This document shows, one piece after another, positions 1-11,120 of a DNA stretch of 11,120 nucleotides (the stretch's first letter is position 1; each line of letters starts with the position of its first letter). This stretch comes from a virus (lineage: Duplodnaviria; Heunggongvirae; Uroviricota; Caudoviricetes). The translations under genes were made by a program, and so were the position numbers. The notes below the pieces were generated by a model. The model saw only the letters and a list, made by a program, of their open reading frames with translations. It ran no database searches and was not told the origin of the DNA. The DNA lies in the IMG/VR virus record IMGVR_UViG_2675903255_000012. One strand, 5' to 3'.

Positions 1-505
<505 letters not shown>

Positions 506-776
506 CAGGGGCGGCTATGTCGTATGACCAAACGACTTCACAGTTATTGTTTAAAATCTGGACTTTCATTTCATACACCTGCTTTAACATGAGTGCCTAG
601 TGGCACAACATGACTCAACGAATCATCCTGGACTTCATATGCCCCAGGCGGCTACTTCGTGGGCGTCCTGCCTGTTCGTTTTTGACATTTACTGACTGCT
701 TACGACACATGCACCGTGTTGCAACCAGATTTTGTTGTAATCCTGTAGTTGGTCTGGAATAAAAGATAAAATTAAA

Positions 777-813
777 TTGCGAGATATGCAAGTGGTATTT
801 GCGAGATATGCAA
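777..813. promoter_or_regulatory. Two direct copies of 15-bp operator-like motif TTGCGAGATATGCAA (777-791 and 799-813), OL-like, overlapping a candidate leftward (pL-like) promoter
   Basis: Exact 15-bp repeat with 22-bp start-to-start spacing; internally palindromic ends (TTGC…GCAA); same motif class as the site at 1581-1595. On the minus strand TTGCAT lies inside each copy, followed 17 nt later by TATCTT. Confidence 0.55.
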
Positions 814-825
814 ATTTATAGGTAA

Positions 826-847
826 TAAAAAGCCACCTTTCGGTGGC
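826..847 (-). terminator. Rho-independent terminator downstream of cI (hairpin 832-847 followed by T-run on minus strand)
   Basis: GCCACC-TTTC-GGTGGC inverted repeat with AAAAA immediately 5' on the plus strand (T-tract on minus), about 20 bp past the cI stop. Confidence 0.6.
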
Positions 848-867
848 CGATGGATGGGATATTGAGG

Positions 868-1560
868 TTAATTATGTCTCTTAAGGGTTTGCGACTGACT
901 GATTAAGACCTTTCCAAAGACCATGAATCGGTGTTCGTTTTCGCTAGTAATTCCCCATTCACGGTAAATCTGGTTATCAGAAATCACCAGCAGTTTGTCA
1001 GGAATCATTTGAAGTCTTTTAACGTATATTTTGTCATCAAAACCAAAGACATATATACCATCACCATCAAACTGATTGATGCTGACATCAACGAAGATGA
1101 GATCTCCTGGCTCAATGGTTGGACACATACTGTCCCCACGAACGTTGATAACTTTGATGTGATTGGCTGGTCGTCCGCCGAACATTGATACAGCATTATC
1201 AGTTCTGTATTCGATGGCATGAATCACATCAATGACATCACCGCCCTGGATAAGGCCATTTCCCGCACTGGCACTGATATCCAGCATTTCAATACGGAAC
1301 ACATCCTTCACCTGCGCAACATCCTCATTATTACTGTTTTTATATACAGTATTACTTTTGTGGGCAGAGGTAAAGAGATCAGCAATATCAACACCTAAGC
1401 TCTTGGCAATATTACTCAGTGTTTGTTCGGTAAATTGTTTTTGCTTACCCGTTTCTAAGCGCGAGATGTTCGCCGCATCTACTCCTATCGCTTCAGCGAG
1501 ATCGGCGATTTTCATGTTCTTCGCTTGGCGAAGTTGTCTGACTCGGTTTCCTATGTTCAT
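868..1560 (-). CDS. cI: Prophage repressor cI (N-terminal HTH, C-terminal S24 LexA-like autopeptidase domain)
   Basis: N-terminal XRE-type HTH (KIADLAEAIGVDAANISRLETGK), candidate Ala-Gly cleavage region (SASAGNG), and S24 catalytic motifs (GDSMCPTI…, downstream KR). Divergent from cro. ATG sits directly after a promoter-like TTGCTT-N17-TGTAAT on the minus strand, so a leaderless mRNA as in lambda pRM is possible. Confidence 0.88.
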   Translation of the reverse strand: MNIGNRVRQLRQAKNMKIADLAEAIGVDAANISRLETGKQKQFTEQTLSNIAKSLGVDIADLFTSAHKSNTVYKNSNNEDVAQVKDVFRIEMLDISASAGNGLIQGGDVIDVIHAIEYRTDNAVSMFGGRPANHIKVINVRGDSMCPTIEPGDLIFVDVSINQFDGDGIYVFGFDDKIYVKRLQMIPDKLLVISDNQIYREWGITSENEHRFMVFGKVLISQSQTLKRHN

Positions 1561-1657
1561 GCGTTTATTACATTTCTTTATTGCGTGATAAGCAAATCAA
1601 CTTGCGCAAAATAATTGCGTGAAATAACATGCATAACGCGCAATATTTGGAGGGCGT
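1561..1657. promoter_or_regulatory. cI-cro divergent control region (OR-like): operator TTGCGTGATAAGCAA at 1581-1595 plus TTGCG/CGCAA half-sites at 1602-1609, 1615-1619, 1638-1642; candidate pR TTGCGC(1602)-N17-TAACAT(1625)
   Basis: Palindromic 15-mer matching the TTGCG-N5-NGCAA pattern of the 777-813 repeats; TTGCGCAA 8-bp palindrome; divergent genes on both sides. Confidence 0.55.
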
Positions 1658-1918
1658 ATGCAATCACCATTACGAAATGTGCGTAAGGCGCATGGTTTCA
1701 CTTTGCAGCATGTTGCTGCGGGTGTTCAAGTCAATCCAGCGACGTTGAGTCGTATTGAGAGGCTGGAGCAGATTCCATCTATCGAGCTTGCAGAACGTTT
1801 AGCCAATTTTTTTAAGGGTGAAGTCAGCGAAATGCAGATTCTTTATCCGGCACGTTTTCAATCTAGCCAAAACCAGAATGGGTTTAAACCACAGGAACAG
1901 GAGGTGAACCGTGGGTAA
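1658..1918 (+). CDS. cro: Cro-like HTH regulator
   Basis: Small protein with HTH (FTLQHVAAGVQVNPATLSRIE), divergent from cI, first gene of the rightward operon; GGAGG upstream of the ATG. Confidence 0.75.
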   Translation: MQSPLRNVRKAHGFTLQHVAAGVQVNPATLSRIERLEQIPSIELAERLANFFKGEVSEMQILYPARFQSSQNQNGFKPQEQEVNRG

Positions 1919-2462
1919 GCATCACTGGAAAGTAGAAAAACAGCCTGAGTGGTACGTGAAAGCTGTCAGAAAAACTATCGCAGCGTTGCCGGGGGGGTAC
2001 GCTGAAGCTGCTGACTGGCTGGATGTAACAGAGAACGCATTATTTAACCGCCTTCGTGCCGATGGCGATCAGATTTTCCCGCTGGGATGGGCAATGATTT
2101 TGCAACGTGCTGGTGGAACTCACTTCATTGCTGACGCTGTGGCGCAGTCTGCAAATGGCGTCTTTGTGTCTCTTCCTGATGTCGAGGATGTGGACAACGC
2201 CGATATCAACCAACGCCTGCTGGAGGTCATTGAACAGATCGGCAGTTATTCAAAACAGATTCGTTCAGCAATTGAAGACGGTGTAGTGGAACCGCATGAG
2301 AAGACAGCAATTAACGACGAGCTGTACCTCTCAATTTCGAAGCTGCAGGAGCATGCAGCACTGGTCTACAAAATTTTTTGCATTTCAGAAAGTAATGACG
2401 CCCGCGAGTGTGCAGCTCCGGGCGCCGTGGCGTGTCGTGACTGTGGAGAAACTAACGCATGA
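1911..2462 (+). CDS. CII-like early regulator (YdaT/CP76-type), GTG start
   Basis: Position immediately after cro with an 8-nt overlap; AGGAGG 6 nt upstream of GTG. Family assignment is from memory of CII-like/YdaT-type proteins following cro-like genes, not from a search. Confidence 0.45.
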
Positions 2463-2797
2463 ACAGTTTAACAACACACTACCGTCGCTCGCAACTGATT
2501 GCACTTCCTGTACCGGGTGGAAAAGCGAAGGTGGAGTATTGCTATGCAGTGAATGTACCAGGTGACAGGGAAATTGTAACCCACAGCTTTGCAGAGTGGG
2601 CTGTGGGTGATTTCAACAGGCAAAAGGAGACAGTCCTTTGCGACAAGTTAACCGCTGGTTCAAAGATCACTACGGAGTGCCCGTCAGAGTCATTCGTTGG
2701 GAACCGGAAACACAACGGGTTATCTACCTCCGCGAAGGCTATGAGCATGAGTGCTTCAGCCCGCTCGAACAGTTTCGTCGTAAATTCAGGGAAATAG
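2459..2797 (+). CDS. Hypothetical protein; the 3' half looks non-protein-like, so this may be a frameshifted gene
   Basis: ATGA start/stop overlap with the upstream gene suggests translational coupling. The N-terminal ~65 aa look like real protein; the C-terminal part (…[22 protein letters not shown]) looks like out-of-frame translation. Confidence 0.35.
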
Positions 2798-2817
2798 AGG
2801 TCGGTCATGAGCACTAA
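2638..2817 (+). CDS. Small hypothetical protein (59 aa, TTG start), or the C-terminal part of a frameshifted gene begun at 2459
   Basis: Frame +1 is open 2611-2817 and translates to a protein-like sequence (…[54 protein letters not shown]). AAGGAG at 2624-2629 sits 8 nt upstream of TTG 2638; the stop overlaps the O-like start at 2807. Not in the ORF track (below length cutoff). Confidence 0.4.
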
Positions 2818-3748
2818 ATTAACCGGCTATGTATGGGATGGTTGCGCTGCGTCAGGCATGAAGTTATCCAGCGTGGCAATTATGGCCCGCCTGGCTGATT
2901 TCAGTAATGACGAAGGTGTGTGCTGGCCATCAATTGAAACCATTGCCCGCCAGATTGGCGCGGGGATGAGCACCGTCAGAACGGCTATCGCACGGCTGGA
3001 AGCAGAAGGCTGGTTAACGCGTAAGGCGCGTCGCCAGGGTAACCGCAATGCGTCGAATGTTTATCAGCTTAACGTTGCGAAGCTTCAGGCAGCGGCATTT
3101 TCTCAACTGTCAGATTCTGACCCGTCAAAATCTGACGCATCAAAATCTGACCCGTCAAAATTTGATGCGTCGAAATCTGGCAAAAAAGCGGGTTTTCACC
3201 CGTCAGAATCTGGCGGGGATCCGTCAGTAAAATCAAAACATGATCCGTCAGATAAAAAACCTTCTCGTCCGGACGCTTCGCAACCGGACACGCAGACGGA
3301 TGAACAGGATTTTTTAACTCGCCATCCTGATGCGGTTGTATTCAGCCCTAAAAAGCGCCAGTGGGGGACGCAGGATGATTTGACCTGTGCACAGTGGCTC
3401 TGGAAAAAAATCATCGCCCTGTACGAGCATGCCGCCGAATGTGACGGCGAGGTGGTTCGTCCCAAAGAACCGAACTGGACAGCCTGGGCAAACGAAATTC
3501 GCCTGATGTGTGTGCAGGATGGTCGTACTCATAAACAAATCTGCGAGATGTACAGCCGCGTCAGTCGCGATCCGTTCTGGTGCCGTAACGTGCTCAGCCC
3601 GTCGAAGCTGCGGGAAAAATGGGATGAGCTTTCCCTGCGCTTATCGCCGTCCGTCAGCACGTACACCGAAAAACGCGAGGACCCGTACTTCAAAGCCAGT
3701 TACGACAACGTGGACTACAGCCAGATCCCGGCAGGATTCAGGGGGTGA
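2807..3748 (+). CDS. Replication initiation protein (lambda O-like: N-terminal winged-HTH, repetitive linker, C-terminal DnaT-like domain)
   Basis: Position after the cro/CII module; N-terminal HTH (SSVAIMARLADFSNDEGVCWPSIETIARQIGAGMSTVRTAIARLEAEGWL); an iteron array is embedded in the region encoding the low-complexity linker, as in lambda O. Confidence 0.7.
   Translation: MSTKLTGYVWDGCAASGMKLSSVAIMARLADFSNDEGVCWPSIETIARQIGAGMSTVRTAIARLEAEGWLTRKARRQGNRNASNVYQLNVAKLQAAAFSQLSDSDPSKSDASKSDPSKFDASKSGKKAGFHPSESGGDPSVKSKHDPSDKKPSRPDASQPDTQTDEQDFLTRHPDAVVFSPKKRQWGTQDDLTCAQWLWKKIIALYEHAAECDGEVVRPKEPNWTAWANEIRLMCVQDGRTHKQICEMYSRVSRDPFWCRNVLSPSKLREKWDELSLRLSPSVSTYTEKREDPYFKASYDNVDYSQIPAGFRG
3105..3262. 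repeat. Origin-like iteron array inside the O-like gene: about 4-5 tandem ~15-bp units (AAAATCTGAC[C/G]C[G/A]TCA) plus further CCGTCAG copies, followed by an A/T-rich stretch
   Basis: Visible tandem periodicity at 3110-3180 (tctgacccgtcaaaa / tctgacgcatcaaaa / tctgacccgtcaaaa / tttgatgcgtcgaaa); CCGTCAG at about 3200, 3221 and 3245; A/T-rich taaaatcaaaacatgatccgtcagataaaaaac at about 3228-3260. Confidence 0.65.
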
Positions 3749-3750
3749 GC

Positions 3751-4239
3751 ATGAGTCTTTTGAATGACGTTCAGAAATTCATTGAAGCCCATCCGGGCTG
3801 TACTTCCGGAGACATTGCGGATGCTTTTGCAGGTTACTCACGGCAGCGCGTTCTGCAGTCTGCAAGCAAGTTACGTCAGAGTGGGCGTGTGGCTCACCGT
3901 TGTGAAGGGGATACACGCAGACATTTCCCGCGCCTGACTGAGAGAGCGCAGGAGCCGGAACCACAACCAGTTCGTGAAACCAGACCTGTGCGCAATTTCT
4001 ATGTCGGCACTAACGATCCCCGGGTGATTTTGTGCCTGACCCGCCAGGCTGAAGAACTGGAGTCCAGGGGCTTATACCGTCGTGCTGCAACGGTGTGGAT
4101 GGCGGCATTCCGTGAAAGCCACTCCCAGCCAGAACGAAACAATTTTCTGGCGCGTCGTGAGCGGTGCTTACGGAAAAGCAGCAAGCGCGCTGTATCGGGT
4201 GAAGAGTGGTATCTGTCAGGGAATTACGTGGGGGCTTAA
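3751..4239 (+). CDS. PerC-family-like transcriptional regulator with an N-terminal winged-helix-like domain (start may be GTG 3745)
   Basis: C-terminal segment …LESRGLYRRAATVWMAAF…RRERCL… matches the PerC/Pch signature (LE-[KR]GL-x-RRAA-x-W) as I remember it. Overlaps the O-like stop. Confidence 0.5.
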   Translation: MSLLNDVQKFIEAHPGCTSGDIADAFAGYSRQRVLQSASKLRQSGRVAHRCEGDTRRHFPRLTERAQEPEPQPVRETRPVRNFYVGTNDPRVILCLTRQAEELESRGLYRRAATVWMAAFRESHSQPERNNFLARRERCLRKSSKRAVSGEEWYLSGNYVGA

Positions 4240-4892
4240 TGAGTAATAAATATTGCCAGGCGCTGGTGGAGCTGCGGAACAAACCAGCCCATGAACTGAA
4301 GGAAGTGGGCGATCAGTGGCGCACGCCGGACAACATTTTCTGGGGAATTAACACCCTGTTTGGCCCGTTTGTTCTGGATCTGTTCACTGACGGTGATAAC
4401 GCCAAATGTGCCGCTTATTACACTGCGGAAGACAACGCGCTGGCGCATGACTGGTCAGAACGTCTTGCGGAGCTTAAAGGTGCTGCCTTTGGTAATCCCC
4501 CATACAGCCGCGCCAGTCAGCATGAGGGGCAATACATCACCGGCATGCGTTACATCATGAAGCATGCCAGTGCCATGCGTGATAAAGGCGGGCGCTATGT
4601 TTTCCTGATCAAAGCTGCCACCAGCGAAGTGTGGTGGCCGGAAGATGCAGATCATATTGCTTTTATTCGCGGGCGTATTGGTTTTGAACTGCCTGCCTGG
4701 TTTATCCCGAAGGATGAGAAGCAGGTGCCGACAGGCGCTTTCTTCGCTGGTGCTATTGCTGTTTTCGACAAGACCTGGAAGGGACCGGCAATCAGCTACA
4801 TCGGGCGCTATGAACTTGAGGCATGTGGTGAGGCCTTTCTGGCGCAGGTTCGCCAGCAGGCAGAAAAACTGGTCAGGGAGATGGCGGCATGA
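4239..4892 (+). CDS. Phage Dam-family N6-adenine DNA methyltransferase (orphan)
   Basis: …GDQWRTPDNIF… N-terminal motif and NPPY catalytic motif (AFGNPPYS) typical of phage Dam-type MTases; TAATG stop/start overlap with the upstream gene; no restriction endonuclease partner nearby. Confidence 0.75.
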   Translation: MSNKYCQALVELRNKPAHELKEVGDQWRTPDNIFWGINTLFGPFVLDLFTDGDNAKCAAYYTAEDNALAHDWSERLAELKGAAFGNPPYSRASQHEGQYITGMRYIMKHASAMRDKGGRYVFLIKAATSEVWWPEDADHIAFIRGRIGFELPAWFIPKDEKQVPTGAFFAGAIAVFDKTWKGPAISYIGRYELEACGEAFLAQVRQQAEKLVREMAA

Positions 4893-5215
4893 CGACGTTA
4901 ACTCAATGCCAGCAGCAGGTGCTGGATATGCTGATTTCTTATCAGAAAGAACGTGGCTTCCCGCCAACCAATCAGGAGGTGGCAACCATGCTGGGATACC
5001 GTTCAGTGAATGCAGCGGTGGAGCATCTTCGCGCACTGGAGAAAAAAGGCGTCATCACGATAAAGCGTGGCGTGGCCCGGGGGATAACGCTTCATATCGC
5101 GGTGAAGGACGACGACAGCGAGGCGGTCGGGATTATCCGCGCACTGCTTGCCGGTGAGGAAAACGCAAGGCTGCGTGCAACCCACTGGTTACATGAGAGG
5201 GACCTGAAAGTATGA
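4889..5215 (+). CDS. LexA N-terminal DNA-binding-domain homologue lacking the S24 peptidase domain
   Basis: Alignable by eye to the LexA N-terminus (LTQCQQQVLDMLISYQKERGFPPTNQEVATMLGYRSVNAAVEHLRALEKKGVI versus LexA [53 protein letters not shown]); only 108 aa, no Ser/Lys peptidase domain. Confidence 0.7.
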   Translation: MTTLTQCQQQVLDMLISYQKERGFPPTNQEVATMLGYRSVNAAVEHLRALEKKGVITIKRGVARGITLHIAVKDDDSEAVGIIRALLAGEENARLRATHWLHERDLKV

Positions 5216-5601
5216 AGCTGATCCTGCCTTTTCCGCCCAGCGTGAACACGTACTGGCGACACCCCAACAAAGGGGCGTTTGCTGGTAAGAGCCTGATAAG
5301 CGCGGCGGGGCGAAAATTCCAGAGCGCGGCGTGCGCAGCAATAGTTGAGCAGTTACGTCGTCTGCCGAAACCAACGTCGGCACCTGCTTCAGTGGAGATC
5401 GTGTTGTTTCCTCCGGATAACCGGATCCGCGATCTGGACAACTATAACAAGGCGCTGTTTGACGCCCTGACCCACGCGGGTGTGTGGGAAGACGACAGTC
5501 AGGTGAAAAGAATGCTGGTGGAGTGGGGACCGGTTATCCCGGAAGGGAAGGTCGAGATCACTATCAGTAAGTACGAGAAAACGGCGGGTGCAGCCGCCTG
5601 A
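5212..5601 (+). CDS. rusA: Holliday junction resolvase RusA
   Basis: RusA signature …RDLDNYNKALFDALTHAGVWEDDSQV…; about 129 aa; ATGA overlap with the upstream gene. Confidence 0.88.
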   Translation: MKLILPFPPSVNTYWRHPNKGAFAGKSLISAAGRKFQSAACAAIVEQLRRLPKPTSAPASVEIVLFPPDNRIRDLDNYNKALFDALTHAGVWEDDSQVKRMLVEWGPVIPEGKVEITISKYEKTAGAAA

Positions 5602-5620
5602 TTAAGAGGAGAAACGAAGT

Positions 5621-6430
5621 ATGAATAATCTGATGGTCATTGATGGTATTGAAGTTCGTCGTGATGCTTATGGGCGTTACAGCCTGAACGATCTGCATCG
5701 CGCAGCAGTAGCATCTGGTGCAAATGCCAGAACCAAGGAGCCGGGAAAGTTTCTTTCCAGCCAACAAACTGTTGAGCTTGTTCATGAATTGACCAACACC
5801 CAGAATTTGGGTGTTGACCCGGTGAGTGTGATTCATGGGGGAAATGAACGGGGAACGTATGTCTGCAAGGAACTGGTGTATGCCTATGCAATGTGGATCA
5901 GCCCGTCATTCCATCTGAAGGTGATCCGTACTTTCGATATGGTAACCAGCGCACCGGAAAAATTATCCGGACAGGCTGCTGACAAGATGCAGGCTGGCGT
6001 GATCCTGCTGGACTTTATGCGCCGGGAGTTAAACCTGTCTAACTCTTCAGTGCTTGGTGCCTGTCAGAAACTCCAGGAGGCTGTTGGCTTACCGAATCTG
6101 GCACCGCGCTATGCCATTGATGCTCCTGCTGACGCGCCTGATGGCTCAAGCCGCCCCACGCTATCATTGAGTGCACTGCTGAAGCAGTATGGTATCCGCC
6201 TGACAGCTAATCAGGCATATCACCAGATGGCGAAGCTGGGGATCGTTGAACAACGTGAACGATACAGCCGCACTGCGATTAACAACATCAAAAAATTCTG
6301 GTCGCTGACAGCGAAAGGCTGCATGTTCGGCAAGAACATCACCAGTCCCGCAAATCCGCGCGAGACGCAGCCGCATTTCTTCGAATCCCGATTCCCTGAG
6401 CTGTTAAAGCTGCTCGATACCGTTCATTGA
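5621..6430 (+). CDS. KilA-N domain protein (antirepressor-like DNA-binding protein)
   Basis: N-terminal KilA-N-like region (IDGIEVRRDAYGRYSLNDLHRA… YAYAMWISPSFHLKVIRTF); AAGAGGAG SD 9 nt upstream of the ATG. Confidence 0.7.
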   Translation: MNNLMVIDGIEVRRDAYGRYSLNDLHRAAVASGANARTKEPGKFLSSQQTVELVHELTNTQNLGVDPVSVIHGGNERGTYVCKELVYAYAMWISPSFHLKVIRTFDMVTSAPEKLSGQAADKMQAGVILLDFMRRELNLSNSSVLGACQKLQEAVGLPNLAPRYAIDAPADAPDGSSRPTLSLSALLKQYGIRLTANQAYHQMAKLGIVEQRERYSRTAINNIKKFWSLTAKGCMFGKNITSPANPRETQPHFFESRFPELLKLLDTVH

Positions 6431-6431
6431 G

Positions 6432-7427
6432 GTGACCGTGAGAGCACTACTGACTCCTGAAATTGCCCCGCGTATGGGGATCGTATTGTTCAGGCCAGGT
6501 TCAGAGCTGATGCCCCTGTTTATGCAGGGGCGTGTCCTGCTGGAGCCTGAGCCGGAACGTTATTCATCTTTCGCCAGTGGTGCCGTTCCGGCGGCATCAC
6601 AACCGCTGGCGGATGATCCTGCCGTTCGGGCCGTGTTCCGCAATGAGGCAGTGATCCGTCGTGCTGGTGGCGTGGAATGTCTTGAAAGCTGGTTACTTCG
6701 TGAAAAAGGCTGCCAGTGGCCTCATTCCGACTGGCACAGCGAGAACATGACCACAATGCGACACGCTCCGGGCGCAATCCGTCTGTGCTGGCACTGCGAT
6801 AACCAGCTGCGCGATCAGTTCACGGAACGGCTGGAATCAATGGCAACGGATAACTGTGCCCGCTGGGTGTTGTCTGTTGTGCGTCGGGATCTCGGTTTTG
6901 ATGACAGTCACGTTGTGACAATGCCGGAACTGTGCTGGTGGCTGATTCGTAATGACCTGGCGGATGCCTTACCGGAAAGTGCAGCCCGTAAGGCACTTAG
7001 ATTACCGAAGCCTGTTGTGCCGTCTGTTACCCGGGAAAGTGACCTTGTGCCTTCGGTTCCTGCCACCAGCATCATCCAGGATAAAGCGAAAAAGGTGCTG
7101 GCGCTGAAAGTGGATCCTGAGTCGCCGGAGTCTTTTATGTTACGCCCAAAACGTCGCCGCTGGGTTAATGAAAAGTACACGCGCTGGGTTAAGACACAGC
7201 CGTGTGCATGTTGTGGAAAGCCTGCTGATGATCCCCACCACCTGATAGGTCACGGTCAGGGAGGAATGGGTACAAAAGCGCATGACCTCTTTGTGTTGCC
7301 TTTGTGCAGAAAGCATCACGACGAGCTGCATGCGGATACCGTGGCATTTGAAGAGAAGTATGGCTCCCAGCTGGAGCTGATATTTCGTTTTATCGATCGT
7401 GCGCTGGCAATAGGCGTACTGGCGTAA
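6432..7427 (+). CDS. DUF968-like phage protein with a C-terminal Cys/His (HNH-like) motif; GTG start uncertain
   Basis: C-terminal CACCGKPADDPHHLIGHGQGGMGTKAHDLFVLPLCRKHHDELH; lies immediately upstream of Q, as I recall ydfU-quuQ does in the K-12 Qin prophage. Start codon position is uncertain (GTG 6432, GTG 6438 or a downstream ATG). Confidence 0.55.
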   Translation: MTVRALLTPEIAPRMGIVLFRPGSELMPLFMQGRVLLEPEPERYSSFASGAVPAASQPLADDPAVRAVFRNEAVIRRAGGVECLESWLLREKGCQWPHSDWHSENMTTMRHAPGAIRLCWHCDNQLRDQFTERLESMATDNCARWVLSVVRRDLGFDDSHVVTMPELCWWLIRNDLADALPESAARKALRLPKPVVPSVTRESDLVPSVPATSIIQDKAKKVLALKVDPESPESFMLRPKRRRWVNEKYTRWVKTQPCACCGKPADDPHHLIGHGQGGMGTKAHDLFVLPLCRKHHDELHADTVAFEEKYGSQLELIFRFIDRALAIGVLA

Positions 7428-7440
7428 GTGGAGAACGAGC

Positions 7441-8193
7441 ATGAACTTTGAAGCCTTACCGAAATATTACTCCCCAAAATCTCCAAAATTGAGCGATGAC
7501 GCACCGGCGACAGGCTCTGGTGGTTTAACAATTACGGATGTAATGGCTGCGCAGGGGATGGTGCAGTCGAAAGCACCGCTTGGGTTTGCCTTATTCCTGG
7601 CAAAAGTTGGTGTTCAGGATCCTCAGTTTGCGATTGAAGGTCTGCTCAATTACGCGATGGCACTGGATAACCCGACATTGAACAAATTGAGTGAAGAAAC
7701 CCGGCTACAGATCATTCCTTACCTTGTGAATTTTGCCTTTGCTGATTATTCCAGGTCTGCGGCAAGTAAGGCTCGCTGTGAGCATTGTGCTGGTACTGGA
7801 TTTCATGATGTATTGCGCGAGGTGGTGAAACACTCCAGAAGCGGGGAATCTGTTATCAAGGAAGAGTGGGTGAAGGAACTGTGTCAGCATTGTCATGGTA
7901 AGGGAGAAGTCAGCACAGCGTGCAGAGGGTGTAAGGGTAAAGGTATTGTCCTGGATGAAAAAAGAACCAGGCTTCATGGCACGCCTGTTTATAAGGTTTG
8001 TGGGCGTTGCAATGGAAACCGGTTTAGCCGTTTACCAACCACACTGGCGCGGCTTCATGTCCAGAAGCTGGTACCAGACCTGACGGATTATCAGTGGTAC
8101 AAAGGATATGCAGATGTCATTGATAAACTGGTTACAAAGTGCTGGCAGGAAGAAGCGTATGCTGAGACACAATTGAGGAAAGTGACGAGATGA
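7441..8193 (+). CDS. Late-gene antitermination protein Q (phage 82/Qin QuuQ-like)
   Basis: 250 aa with Cys-rich zinc-binding motifs (CEHCAGTG…CQHCHGKGE…CRGCKGKG…CGRCNGN); followed within 60 bp by a strong promoter and a short-transcript terminator, the pR'/tR' arrangement. Confidence 0.8.
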   Translation: MNFEALPKYYSPKSPKLSDDAPATGSGGLTITDVMAAQGMVQSKAPLGFALFLAKVGVQDPQFAIEGLLNYAMALDNPTLNKLSEETRLQIIPYLVNFAFADYSRSAASKARCEHCAGTGFHDVLREVVKHSRSGESVIKEEWVKELCQHCHGKGEVSTACRGCKGKGIVLDEKRTRLHGTPVYKVCGRCNGNRFSRLPTTLARLHVQKLVPDLTDYQWYKGYADVIDKLVTKCWQEEAYAETQLRKVTR

Positions 8194-8224
8194 ATGATTT
8201 TCGACGAAAATGGCGACATGATGC

Positions 8225-8253
8225 TTGCATTTTTCAAAAAAAATGGATAATAT
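8225..8253 (+). promoter_or_regulatory. Late promoter pR'-like (TTGCAT-N17-TAATAT), presumed site of Q engagement
   Basis: Near-consensus sigma70 hexamers with 17-bp spacer, just downstream of Q and upstream of a terminator. Confidence 0.6.
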
Positions 8254-8301
8254 TTTCTCAATGATAGGCATTGTGTGTCCGGCTTTAATAAAAAGTAGAA
8301 A

Positions 8302-8327
8302 ACCCGCTGATGTGCGGGTTTTTTTTC
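8302..8327 (+). terminator. tR'-like rho-independent terminator
   Basis: ACCCGC-TGATGT-GCGGGT hairpin followed by an 8-T run. Confidence 0.75.
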
Positions 8328-8347
8328 GGAATTTTAGATGTGTGGCA

Positions 8348-8377
8348 TTGAAATGGTATTCGGCGAGTAGGTAGAAT
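8348..8377 (+). promoter_or_regulatory. Candidate autonomous promoter of the cargo cassette (TTGAAA-N18-TAGAAT)
   Basis: Sigma70-like hexamers located between tR' and the cargo ORF. Confidence 0.45.
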
Positions 8378-8404
8378 TTAAACTTTCGTCTCGTCTGGAT
8401 CGAC

Positions 8405-8947
8405 ATGATGTTTCAAGCCTTCCAAACAGCAGTATTTAAAAATGTTGCAGAGTATTTAAAAGGGCGCTTCCCTCATAAGTCGTTAGGGCTCGTATATGCC
8501 GACGAGCTGGTACTAAAAGATATGGAGTTCCTCAAGGCTAACAATAAACTGCGGTGGGATCCCGGACTAAAGTCGCGAGTGTTTATGGATATGATGGAAG
8601 AACACCCGATAAAACTAGTTGTTTATTATCGTGGGGAGCCTATTGGATTTGCATTTGGGTGTTACTGTAAGCCGAAAAATGCGGTGCATATTTGCTGGAT
8701 GGAAAAACGTAATGATGCACATGAAGACCTAGACCATCAGATGCTTGGTATCGTTTTGGATTGCTTCTCTGCATATGCACGATTTCTGAACCTTCAGGGT
8801 GAATCTATTGATTCGATAGCTTTAGTTAGTCCAGTTGATGGGGCAATAAGATACTATACTGAAAGTGGTTTTGAGTACATTGCTGATTACGAACGAGGTG
8901 GTTGCGCAATGGTGCTTAGGAGCGTTTTACCTAACCAATCAGTGTGA
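8405..8947 (+). CDS. Cargo (moron) protein, 180 aa, GNAT-fold-like putative acyltransferase; function unknown
   Basis: AT-rich with atypical codon usage compared with flanking phage genes; C-terminal region resembles the GNAT motif (…SIALVSPVDGAIRYYTESGFEYIADYE…) and β-strand-like KLVVYYRGEPIGFAFG, but the canonical R/Q-x-x-G-x-G/A acetyl-CoA motif is not evident. Confidence 0.45.
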   Translation: MMFQAFQTAVFKNVAEYLKGRFPHKSLGLVYADELVLKDMEFLKANNKLRWDPGLKSRVFMDMMEEHPIKLVVYYRGEPIGFAFGCYCKPKNAVHICWMEKRNDAHEDLDHQMLGIVLDCFSAYARFLNLQGESIDSIALVSPVDGAIRYYTESGFEYIADYERGGCAMVLRSVLPNQSV

Positions 8948-9138
8948 GTTAGATTCTTAATTTCTCCAGAATCATTACAAAAGTATTGAAAACCTCTTTT
9001 AGTTGATGCAATCTGGATCCACACAAAGCACACACAAAATGTACTACGCTTTACTTTATACATCTTCAGGTAACAAACTTTGTTGCCTTTATGCTTCAAA
9101 GAAGCAACTACAGCTTAGTGCTGAACAAGGGGATTTTT

Positions 9139-9324
9139 ATGAAACATCATGAGCAGATAGAGATTGAGGCAGCTAAAGTCGTCGCCGAACTCTTTGCTGG
9201 CAATGCATCTCCAATGGAAACCTTTGGTATTACATGGAGTCAAACTCAGATGTTAGAGCGTAAGAATCCTGGTGTAGTGATCAAACTAGTACCGGATGAC
9301 GGTAAAAAACTTGCGTATTGCTGA
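9139..9324 (+). CDS. Small cargo protein (61 aa), hypothetical; candidate partner of the 8405-8947 gene
   Basis: AAGGGGA SD 5 nt upstream of the ATG; AT-rich; followed by a terminator; same orientation and same cassette as the GNAT-like ORF. Confidence 0.4.
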   Translation: MKHHEQIEIEAAKVVAELFAGNASPMETFGITWSQTQMLERKNPGVVIKLVPDDGKKLAYC

Positions 9325-9383
9325 TAATTTTTAAAGATTTTTTCAGCTAGAGAATCGATTATTTTACTATAAATCGCGAAGGA

Positions 9384-9410
9384 GCCCCACATATTGTGGG
9401 GCTTTTTGTT
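9384..9410 (+). terminator. Rho-independent terminator closing the cargo cassette
   Basis: GCCCCACA-TAT-TGTGGGGC hairpin followed by TTTTTGTTT. Confidence 0.7.
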
Positions 9411-9581
9411 TCATCTTAGTTAGCCGTTATTCACATTCACTACTTTGCTACTTATCCACTGTAAAAATAAATTGTGAATTATTTTGTGGCTTATTGTTAG
9501 TGTTCTATCAATTTTGTGTGTGATATTCCATTGGCGTGGTTATTATCTGTGCATCGCACTTAAATGTATAAAGCTCACTAG

Positions 9582-9956
9582 TTGAGACAATCCTACCACC
9601 AGTTGGTGGTATCTCATGATTCACTGAATTGCAAATCTTCTGAATTGCTGGATGAGTTTAAATCTCACCGGCGCTATTTCTCCGTATCAGTCTCCGTGCC
9701 TTATACCGATGTCAGGACGCATAAGCCCGTTCAGTTCTACCCGGGTAAACATCCGTGCGAGAAACCGGCGGATATGCTCAGGCAAATAATCAATGCCAGT
9801 AGTCGACCTGGTGATCTGGTTGCTGATTTCTTTATGGGATTCGGTTCCACAATAAAAGCAGCAATGGCGCTGGGGCGTCGGGCGTTAGGTGTTTAACTTG
9901 AGTCAGAGCGGTTTAATCAGACGGTGAAAGAGGTAAGTGAACTGGTGGGGAAATAA
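9582..9956 (+). pseudogene. 3' remnant of an N6/N4 DNA methyltransferase gene (C-terminal motifs only), interrupted by an in-frame TAA at 9894
   Basis: …GKHPCEKPADMLRQIINASSRPGDLVADFFMGFGSTIKAAMALGRRALGV carries the HP-x-x-KP and FxGxG AdoMet-binding motifs that sit at the C-terminus of beta-class MTases; no DPPY-type N-terminal half upstream (AT-rich non-coding DNA). The frame continues protein-like after the TAA (LESERFNQTVKEVSELVGK). Confidence 0.55.
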
Positions 9957-10032
9957 TTCTGGTGGCCACGTTGCGTGGCCTTTTTATTTCCAACACAGCA
10001 CCCGCAAATATCGCGAGGTGAGAGATGACGAA

Positions 10033-10368
10033 ATGCCTCATAACCCAAATACCTGGCCGGACTGGCTGGAGTTGTTTCAGAGCTGGTGGCGTGGAGACAC
10101 ACCGCTGGGTGCAGTGATTATGTCGATCGTTATGGCTGGTTTGCGCATCGCCTATTTTGGCGGTGGTGGTGGCTGGAAGCGAAAAACGCTCGAGATTTTG
10201 CTATGTGGCGCTCTGACGCTGACCTTTGCATCCGCTCTTGAGTATGTCGGATGGCCTAAATCACTTTCTGTTGCCATTGGTGGTGGGGTGGGGCTGATCG
10301 GTGTCGATGCTATTCGTGGGGCTGCAATGCGAGTAATCGGTAACAAATTTGGTGGCTCTAAGGAGTAA
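10033..10368 (+). CDS. S: Class I holin (lambda S family); start codon tentative
   Basis: Three hydrophobic segments and a charged C-terminus, alignable by eye to lambda S (GAVIMSIVMAGLRIAYFGGGG versus GAILAFAMAYLRGRYNGG); immediately upstream of R. Confidence 0.7.
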   Translation: MPHNPNTWPDWLELFQSWWRGDTPLGAVIMSIVMAGLRIAYFGGGGGWKRKTLEILLCGALTLTFASALEYVGWPKSLSVAIGGGVGLIGVDAIRGAAMRVIGNKFGGSKE

Positions 10369-10371
10369 TTT

Positions 10372-10848
10372 ATGCAGGTACTAAATTCCCAGCGTAAAGC
10401 TTTCCTTGATATGGTGGCTTGGTCAGAAGGAACGGATAACGGACGACAACCGACACGTAACCACGGTTATGACGTTATTGTCGGTGGTGAACTCTTCACT
10501 GATTACTCCGATCACCCTCGCAAACTTGTCACGCTAAACCCCAAACTCAAATCAACAGCCGCCGGACGTTACCAGCTTCTTTCACGTTGGTGGGATGCTT
10601 ACCGTAAACAGCTTGGTTTGAAAGACTTCTCCCCCAAAAGCCAGGACGCTGTGGCATTGCAGCAGATTAAAGAACGTGGCGCTTTACCGATGATTGATCG
10701 TGGTGATATTCGTCAGGCTATCGACCGTTGCAGCAATATCTGGGCTTCGTTGCCGGGCGCTGGTTACGGTCAGTTCGAGCATAAGGCTGACAGCCTGATT
10801 GCAAAATTCAAAGAAGCAGGCGGAACGGTCAGAGAGATTGAGGTATGA
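10372..10848 (+). CDS. R: Endolysin R (lambda-type lytic transglycosylase)
   Basis: 158 aa, near-identical to the lambda R sequence as I remember it (…[57 protein letters not shown]…). Confidence 0.93.
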
Positions 10849-11120
10849 GCAGAGTAACCGCGATTATTTCCGCTCTGGTTATCTGCATCATCGTTTGCTT
10901 GTCATGGGCTGTTAATCATTACCGCGATAACGCCATTACCTACAAAGCCCAGCGCGACAAAAATGCCAGAGAACTGAAGCTGGCGAACTCGACAATTACT
11001 GACATGCAGATGCGTCAGCGTGATGTTGCTGCGCTCGATGCAAAATACACGAAGGAGTTAGCTGATGCGAAAGCTGAAAATGATGCTCTGCGTGATGATG
11101 TTGCCGCTGGTCGTCGTCGG
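10845..11120 (+). CDS. Rz: i-spanin Rz (3' end beyond window)
   Basis: [48 protein letters not shown]…, near-identical to lambda Rz from memory; ATGA overlap with the R stop. Confidence 0.93.
11065..11120 (+). CDS. Rz1: o-spanin Rz1, embedded in the +1 frame of Rz (partial)
   Basis: AAGGAG SD then ATG; translation [18 protein letters not shown]… matches the lambda Rz1 lipoprotein signal peptide. Confidence 0.8.

Follow-up and report, generated by a model that had tools for sequence, protein, structure and literature searches.

A lysis cassette that resembles that of phage lambda, lying downstream of late genes that plainly do not, raises the question of where the two parts meet and how they came to be joined. 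We addressed this question in an 11,120-nucleotide (nt) stretch of DNA, IMG/VR virus record IMGVR_UViG_2675903255_000012 (hereafter the window), whose positions 7441-11120 carry the gene for the antiterminator Q, a two-gene cargo segment, the remnant of a DNA methylase gene, the holin gene S, the endolysin gene R and the spanin genes Rz and Rz1. A first-pass annotation had described a non-lambda Q, with a suggested relation to 82/Qin-type phages, joined by modular exchange to an R-Rz-Rz1 cassette nearly identical to that of lambda, with the cargo and the methylase remnant at the junction. We found that the region forms the head of the late operon in a defective lambdoid prophage of SfV/Qin type, carried by a lineage of E. 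coli O157:H7. Alignment places the switch from non-lambda to lambda-like sequence not at the cargo but inside R, ~1 kb further downstream. Very probably, an SfV/Qin-type late region gained its lambda-type end by a crossover in R, as an ordinary case of modular exchange.

A single backbone on either side of the cargo

Identity was plotted in 100-nt sliding windows against SfV, lambda and other phages, and the anatomy and breakpoints of the region could be read directly from these alignments. SfV was colinear with the window over 3673-8325 (95.0% identity) and again over 9587-10823 (93.9%), mEp460 aligned to 5941-8325 and 9587-10020, and phage vB_EcoM-689R6 gave one continuous alignment over 1886-10823 at 98.1%, cargo included. 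This indicates that the two cargo flanks are a single SfV-type backbone. In a blastn comparison with lambda 35000-48502, only window 10390-11120 aligned (92.3%), and Q, the holin and the early region gave no DNA alignment.

The identity plot, together with the informative sites in R described below, confirmed the mosaicism proposed by the first-pass annotation, and no phage record matched uniformly. However, the breakpoints did not fall where that annotation had placed them: with SfV-type sequence on both sides, the cargo and methylase remnant do not mark a lambda/non-lambda junction. The separation of Q, holin and early region from lambda held at the DNA level, but Q and the holin turned out to be distant homologs within the lambda families.

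The endolysin gene is a chimera

All features below lie on the plus strand unless noted. R (10372-10848) encodes a lambda-type lytic transglycosylase of 158 amino acids (aa), identified through a PDB sequence search (1AM7, E 1e-101) and PHROGs; Pfam and NCBIfam gave no family match for it, and PGAP names it GH24. The protein shares 150 of its 158 residues (94.9%) with lambda R, and the AWSEGTDNG motif is unchanged, including the catalytic residue E19. The DNA is less similar, with 420/477 nt (88.1%) identical to lambda and only 83-85% identity in the 5' half; the codons that differ are 41 synonymous and 8 non-synonymous. The first 18 nt of R did not align to lambda, because lambda S overlaps R, whereas the holin gene here stops 3 nt before it. 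The near-identity to lambda initially noted for R and Rz is correct for the proteins but does not extend to the DNA of R.

Resemblance to lambda was unevenly distributed along the gene. The holin gene and the first ~245 nt of R were 96-99% SfV-type, and either 83-85% identical or unalignable to lambda. At sites informative between SfV and lambda, 36 SfV-type and 3 lambda-type states lay left of 10608, against 8 and 46, respectively, right of 10626 (Fisher 1.9e-14). We repeated the comparison with two closer parents. One was the prophage of E. coli strain 127 (Ec127), which carries the same cargo, an SfV-type R and a DUF2570/LysC spanin; the other was the prophage of E. coli isolate K12a, which has a different Q and holin followed by a GH24 R, RzpD and Iss, and then HNH and P27-type terminase genes. 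All 26 informative sites up to 10497 were Ec127-type, all 23 from 10775 onwards were K12a-type, and those between 10542 and 10767 were mixed, which delimits a recombination zone inside R. The best single breakpoint was 10616/10617 (Fisher 9e-13; none of 2000 permutations as extreme). On its left, R 10372-10616 was 98.8% identical to Ec127 and 82.9% to lambda; on its right, R 10617-10848 was 81.5% identical to Ec127, 94.8% to K12a and 93.5% to lambda. By these comparisons, R is a chimera of an SfV-type 5' half and a lambda/K12a-type 3' half. The chimeric junction, searched at ≥99% identity over 10400-10900, was found in only 77 records.

The donor of the lysis end

The i-spanin gene Rz (10845-11120; PF03245) is of lambda/RzpD type and is cut by the window end after 92 of its 153 codons; within this part, 90/92 aa and 268/276 nt are those of lambda. 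Embedded in it in the +1 frame is the o-spanin gene Rz1, of which the window holds the first 18 codons (11065-11120; 17/18 aa identical to lambda Rz1). The expected lambdoid late-operon order of holin, endolysin and spanins, with Rz1 inside Rz in another frame, was found. The proposed R-Rz-Rz1 cassette is therefore present in its order, but only in part within the window.

Since the window ends within Rz, we read the complete Rz, Rz1 and iss genes in the chromosome of strain F1273 (locus L001), which is 99.96% identical to window 460-11120. Here Rz shared 151/153 aa and Rz1 59/60 (the 60-aa gene) with lambda, and Iss shared 89/97 with lambda Bor. In this locus (L001 15898-17776 and beyond), iss, a homolog of bor, follows Rz, and a copy of the insertion sequence (IS) IS1203 comes next. 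With the window extended by L001, the lambda alignment ran on through bor at 92.5-92.8%. However, lambda was not the closest relative. The Rz-iss tract was identical to the K12a prophage at 840/841 nt, compared with ~92-93% to lambda, and the two loci share their protein accessions for RzpD and Iss. PhiR47_2 was also closer over the lambda-like cassette (95.7%, against 92.3-92.8% for lambda). The existence of these closer relatives argues that lambda itself was not the donor. Homology to K12a continues to within ~40 nt of the IS1203 copy.

The block of R 3' half, Rz and iss/bor is common, occurring in 974 E. coli genomes at ≥80% coverage. Another resident O157 prophage was considered as donor and rejected: in O157 strains free of the junction (PA20 and strain 143), the best R-Rz-bor copy at another locus was only ~93.9% identical, below K12a, which favors a K12a-like donor. 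The spanin of the SfV-type relatives is non-homologous, with 24% aa identity to lambda Rz.

A model for the assembly of the region, and its alternatives

The region consists of five segments. The first comprises Q, the candidate late promoter PR' and the terminator tR', running from inside the upstream DUF968 gene to 8325, and is common to SfV, Qin, mEp460 and the Stx2c/Stx2k phages. The second, at 8326-9586, is a rare two-gene, moron-like cargo that displaced orf47 and the 5' two-thirds of the methylase gene. The third is the methylase remnant with its terminator, from 9587 to ~10020; the fourth, an SfV-type holin of the lambda family with the 5' half of R (~10021-10616); and the fifth, the lambda-type 3' half of R with Rz/Rz1, continuing beyond the window into iss. 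We propose that the fourth and fifth were joined by homologous recombination within R, whose sequence is similar enough in the different phage types to allow crossing over. One parent would have been a cargo-bearing SfV-type phage like the strain 127 prophage or vB_EcoM-689R6, and the other a prophage with R-RzpD-Iss like that of isolate K12a rather than lambda itself. We infer that the cargo entered at the junction after tR', at the cost of orf47 and the 5' portion of the methylase gene, and that it did so before the crossover in R, because cargo-bearing relatives with an unrecombined SfV-type R exist.

Several alternatives were weighed against this model. The non-lambda Q module could have been joined directly to a lambda-derived S/R-Rz-Rz1 cassette, with the cargo and methylase remnant marking the junction. 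In its favor, the cargo separates Q from the lysis genes, its left end falls at the recurrent junction after tR', and the R and Rz proteins are 95-98% identical to those of lambda. However, the sequences on either side of the cargo are SfV-type and colinear with SfV and mEp460, which have an intact methylase there, and the SfV-type sequence extends through the holin gene into R, with lambda homology beginning at 10390 and becoming dominant only after ~10617. We consider a direct junction very improbable. Still smaller is the chance that no recombination occurred in R and that its likeness to lambda reflects purifying selection on a vertically diverged, ubiquitous endolysin gene. This would suit the abundance of lambda-type R, present in 2,790 of 5,426 E. 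coli genomes (about half) and mostly at 90-95% identity, and the excess of synonymous over non-synonymous codon differences. It is at odds with the strong clustering of informative sites (p ~1e-12), in which an unbroken run of one parental type gives way to an unbroken run of the other, and with the non-homologous spanin downstream of R in the SfV-type relatives, where the present locus matches K12a at all but one position.

The chimeric R could also be the product of multiple short gene conversions between lambdoid prophages that reside together in O157:H7, rather than of a single crossover with a K12a-like parent. Alternating parental sites are indeed seen in 10542-10767, and with 7-12 places per O157 genome matching these lysis genes, templates would be ample. 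The resident copies elsewhere in O157 chromosomes are nevertheless more distant than K12a, and the clean Rz-iss tract points to one long import, so that we regard this course of events as improbable, though less so than the other two. Some observations also weigh against the crossover model itself. The middle of R is explained by neither parent, its sites being mixed and K12a reaching only 94.8% over 10617-10848; the true donor allele may be unsampled, or more than one conversion event may have taken place. The right-hand junction of the lambda-type segment is not visible, because IS1203 interrupts the prophage. The promoters are consensus matches only, the PR' candidate went unflagged by the promoter scan, and gene expression and function in the region are judged from sequence.

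Q and the junction behind its terminator

The Q gene (7441-8193) encodes a 250-aa antiterminator of SfV/Qin type (PF03589, E 8e-53) that matches 245/250 residues of SfV Q (98%). It aligned to lambda Q (PDB 7UBM, E 1.8e-37) in two blocks, residues 1-120 and 160-250, at 33.5% identity, and on this evidence is a divergent member of the lambda-Q family. In the Pfam scan, only PF03589 and a DnaJ zinc-finger motif were found, with no match to the Q82/Q21-type families PF06530 or PF06323. The suggested kinship to 82/Qin-type phages was borne out for Qin of K-12 (ydfT/quuQ), which was 89.7% identical at the nucleotide level over window 7110-8322, and not for the Q82-type family. Relative to lambda Q, an insertion of ~39 aa (residues 121-159) contributes two CxxCxGxG motifs, which suggests a second zinc centre in SfV/Qin-type Q proteins. 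Such motifs number four in the window Q and two in lambda Q; the DnaJ zinc-finger match was sub-threshold in the family scan.

Between Q and the terminator lies a candidate late promoter PR' (8225-8253; TTGCAT, 17-nt spacer, TAATAT). It was read from the sequence and was not flagged by the consensus promoter scan. Its -35 hexamer is invariant and its -10 hexamer nearly so (TAATAT/TAAGAT) in the window, SfV, Qin, mEp460 and AR216.2b, and we infer that it may act as the late promoter. It is followed by a tR'-like intrinsic terminator (8299-8326; AAAACCCGC...GCGGGTTTTTTTT) with a stem and T-run, which is kept in five lineages and annotated at the homologous place in SfV. By homology with lambda, Q would load on RNA polymerase at the promoter just after its own gene and make it terminator-resistant. 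The polymerase could then pass tR' as well as the terminators at the end of the cargo (9381-9407) and ahead of the holin (9964-9985), so that the cargo genes, methylase remnant, holin, endolysin and spanins would be co-expressed late.

Homology to SfV, mEp460, Qin and the Stx2 phages stopped in every case at 8322-8325, just 3' of the tR' T-run. A five-way alignment showed a common Q end, promoter candidate and terminator, with four different sequences after the T-run. As judged from these alignments, the point directly after the T-run is a recurrent module junction. Over Q-tR', the Stx2c/Stx2k phages were 94.6-95% identical to the window (94.6% for Stx2k), and both carry the same PerC-Dam-LexA-like-RusA-KilA-N-DUF968-Q block. 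In Stx2k phage phiSTEC1575-Stx2k (L017 1-10884), the slot from tR' to the holin, which the cargo occupies here, is filled by tRNA genes and stx2AB. Scans of the entire window for Rfam families (at gathering thresholds) and for tRNAs gave no hits; the Q-S interval here is without tRNA genes or known RNA families, unlike that of the Stx phages.

The cargo segment

The cargo segment (8326-9586) did not align to SfV, mEp460 or lambda, and its G+C content is 39%, compared with 48-53% in the flanks. It replaces orf47 together with the 5' 683 nt of the orf48 methylase gene, which are found in SfV at locus positions 8885-10029. The cargo had been placed exactly at a module boundary. This is true of its left edge (8325/8326), which coincides with the recurrent junction after tR', but its right edge cuts through the methylase reading frame and is not a gene boundary. 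Only one phage record out of 50,697 contained the segment. Among 5,426 complete E. coli genomes, 98 carried it, each at ≥99% identity.

A sigma-70 promoter-like site (8348-8377; TTGAAA, 18-nt spacer, TAGAAT; 10/12 consensus matches), a pattern match only, lies 28 nt upstream of the first cargo open reading frame (ORF). This ORF (8405-8947) encodes a 180-aa protein with a full-length match to phrog_11949. The second ORF (9139-9324) encodes 61 aa (phrog_11292, E 2e-44), and an intrinsic terminator with a 13-pair stem and T-run (9381-9407) closes the cassette. Neither cargo protein matched anything in Pfam or NCBIfam, and the larger gave no GNAT match there at E ≤0.01. Neither had a PADLOC match, which leaves a known defence system unsupported. 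The family of the 180-aa protein comprises only 28 clusters, all from Enterobacterales (Cronobacter, Proteus, Pragia and others).

An AlphaFold2 model of the 180-aa protein, built on the family alignment, was predicted with pLDDT 87.2 and pTM 0.85. The top 50 Foldseek hits against PDB were all GNAT acetyltransferases (E 2e-6 to 3e-5, TM 0.45-0.55), and a search against a viral model library again returned GNAT. As modelled, the protein has the GNAT alpha/beta fold. The stretch Q112-M-L-G115-I-V117 keeps two of the three signature positions of the acetyl-CoA pyrophosphate-binding motif Q/R-x-x-G-x-G/A at the start of helix alpha3; within the family, Q112 is invariant and G115 is at least 90% conserved.

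The 61-aa ORF is kept as the downstream partner of the 180-aa homolog in Proteus and metagenome contigs, at 46-59% identity. In two Proteus contigs (L013 5001-5898 and L014), both cargo homologs (46% identity each) are paired directly after Q, a 127-aa protein of the unrelated PF06530 family, and are followed by holin, lysozyme and Rz. The slot of the pair is thus kept in different genera and behind different Q families. We also considered whether the GNAT protein and small ORF could be a toxin-antitoxin pair, but found no support: the small gene lies downstream, ~190 nt away, unlike in GNAT/ribbon-helix-helix pairs. The small family, the slot right after a Q-dependent terminator (the stx2 slot) and the recurrence after an unrelated Q in Proteus led us to consider the pair as a dedicated late-operon accessory module with a specific function, a reading we hold to be unlikely. 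Such a module could modify a host or phage target during induction, exclude superinfecting phages or set the time of lysis.

Methylase remnant, holin and three lysis cassettes

Downstream of the cargo, 9587-9896 is the 3' remnant of an N6/N4 DNA methyltransferase gene of SfV orf48 type, covering positions 156-209 of 221 in the PF01555 profile. PGAP annotates it as incomplete with a missing N-terminus, and alignment with the SfV and mEp460 methylase genes revealed the junction. A terminator follows at 9964-9985, found by the terminator scan and annotated here in SfV. The holin gene (10033-10368; TIGR01594, 125 bits; PF05106) encodes an SfV allele of the lambda holin family, 111 aa in length, with 110/111 residues (99%) identical to SfV S and 26.5% identity to lambda S. 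Window 10001-10150 was only 88% identical in 689R6 and strain 1409, compared with 99-100% in SfV and strain 127, a small allelic patch within otherwise ~100% identical relatives.

The mEp460 and AR216.2b alignments both stopped at 10020, where other holins follow, and this comparison identifies a second module junction at ~10020. The cassette of Q, cargo and truncated methylase is conserved at ≥99.4% in the 98 cargo-bearing genomes, always single-copy and chromosomal. It was seen with three lysis cassettes: the chimeric R with lambda-type Rz in O157; the SfV-type S-R-Rz(DUF2570)-LysC in strains 127 and 1409 and phage 689R6; and essD-rrrD with a lysis protein in AR216.2b, joined at ~10020, just before the holin start.

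Prophage context

More than 60 complete E. coli O157:H7 chromosomes, which represent the source lineage, matched the 3.68-kb stretch 7441-11120 at 100% identity. In F1273, the prophage adjoins tRNA-Thr and proA, with the integrase beside tRNA-Thr. Integrase, repressor and cro, replication genes, Dam, a LexA-like gene, RusA, KilA-N, DUF968, Q, cargo, S, R, RzpD and Iss follow in order up to the IS1203 copy. Beyond it, only baseplate, tail-fibre and pin (invertase) genes are found. The prophage is defective, because terminase, portal, packaging and head genes are absent. A literature search on the O157 thrW prophage returned no account of the present junction, only a PHASTER-style table of SfV-like O157:H7 prophages.

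At the left end of the window, a 154-aa ORF on the minus strand (14-478) encodes the C-terminus of a truncated IS3-family transposase and is 94% identical at the nucleotide level to the right-hand IS1203 copy of L001. F1273 lacks this remnant, and its alignment begins at 460, which indicates that an IS-associated rearrangement, located to the left of the repressor gene, distinguishes carrier strains from one another. Within a replication-protein-like ORF (2807-3748), a 15-bp tandem repeat (3116-3179; 4.3 copies, 81% matches) encodes repetitive DPSKSDASKS and resembles origin iterons in an initiator gene, as in lambda O.

Significance and comparison with known systems

It is textbook knowledge that lambdoid phages exchange modules, at the borders of genes as well as inside conserved ones, and this locus is a quantified example with little importance beyond that. 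Three features illustrate the point: recombination falls within a conserved linker gene (R), a junction recurs right behind tR', and a single Q-cargo cassette is found with three lysis cassettes. The locus also illustrates that near-identity of proteins to lambda does not identify lambda as the donor, as the DNA of R matches lambda at only 88% and another E. coli prophage is a 99.9% relative over Rz-iss; breakpoints need to be mapped at the nucleotide level.

Compared with R-Rz-Rz1-bor of lambda (NC_001416 45493-46752), the lysis end has the same genes in the same order, with Rz1 embedded in the +1 frame and bor/iss on the opposite strand. However, the DNA is only 92-93% identical overall, and Q, PR', S and everything upstream are unalignable. 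SfV (NC_003444) shares the DUF968/HNH gene, Q, PR'/tR', the methylase 3' end, the terminator, the lambda-family holin and the 5' half of R, but has orf47 and an intact 351-aa methylase at the cargo position. Phage vB_EcoM-689R6 (ON470584) and the strain 127 prophage have the identical cargo as well, and their overall match to the window is 98-100% as far as ~10550. In all three, an SfV-type R 3' end is followed by non-homologous spanins (130-aa DUF2570 Rz and LysC) and then by HNH and terminase genes, whereas in the present locus the 3' end of R is lambda-type and Rz/Rz1 and iss come after it.

The Q modules of Qin (ydfU-ydfT/quuQ) and the Stx2c/Stx2k phages likewise comprise a DUF968 gene, a 250-aa Q, the PR' hexamers and tR'. 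They differ in what follows: cold-shock genes in Qin, tRNAs and stx2AB in the Stx phages, and here the GNAT-fold protein and 61-aa ORF. Their lysis cassettes are also different, for example essQ-rrrQ-rzpQ or a class II holin. The moron concept for lambdoid phages is said to go back to Juhala et al. in 2000. Like lambdoid morons, the cargo is an extra block that is present or absent between colinear phages, situated in the Q-S interval and lower in G+C content; SfV and mEp460 lack it, and 689R6 carries it between identical flanks. A promoter-like site and a terminator of its own, both pattern matches only, may add to the resemblance. Unlike that of morons, its insertion is tied to a deletion that truncates the neighboring methylase gene.

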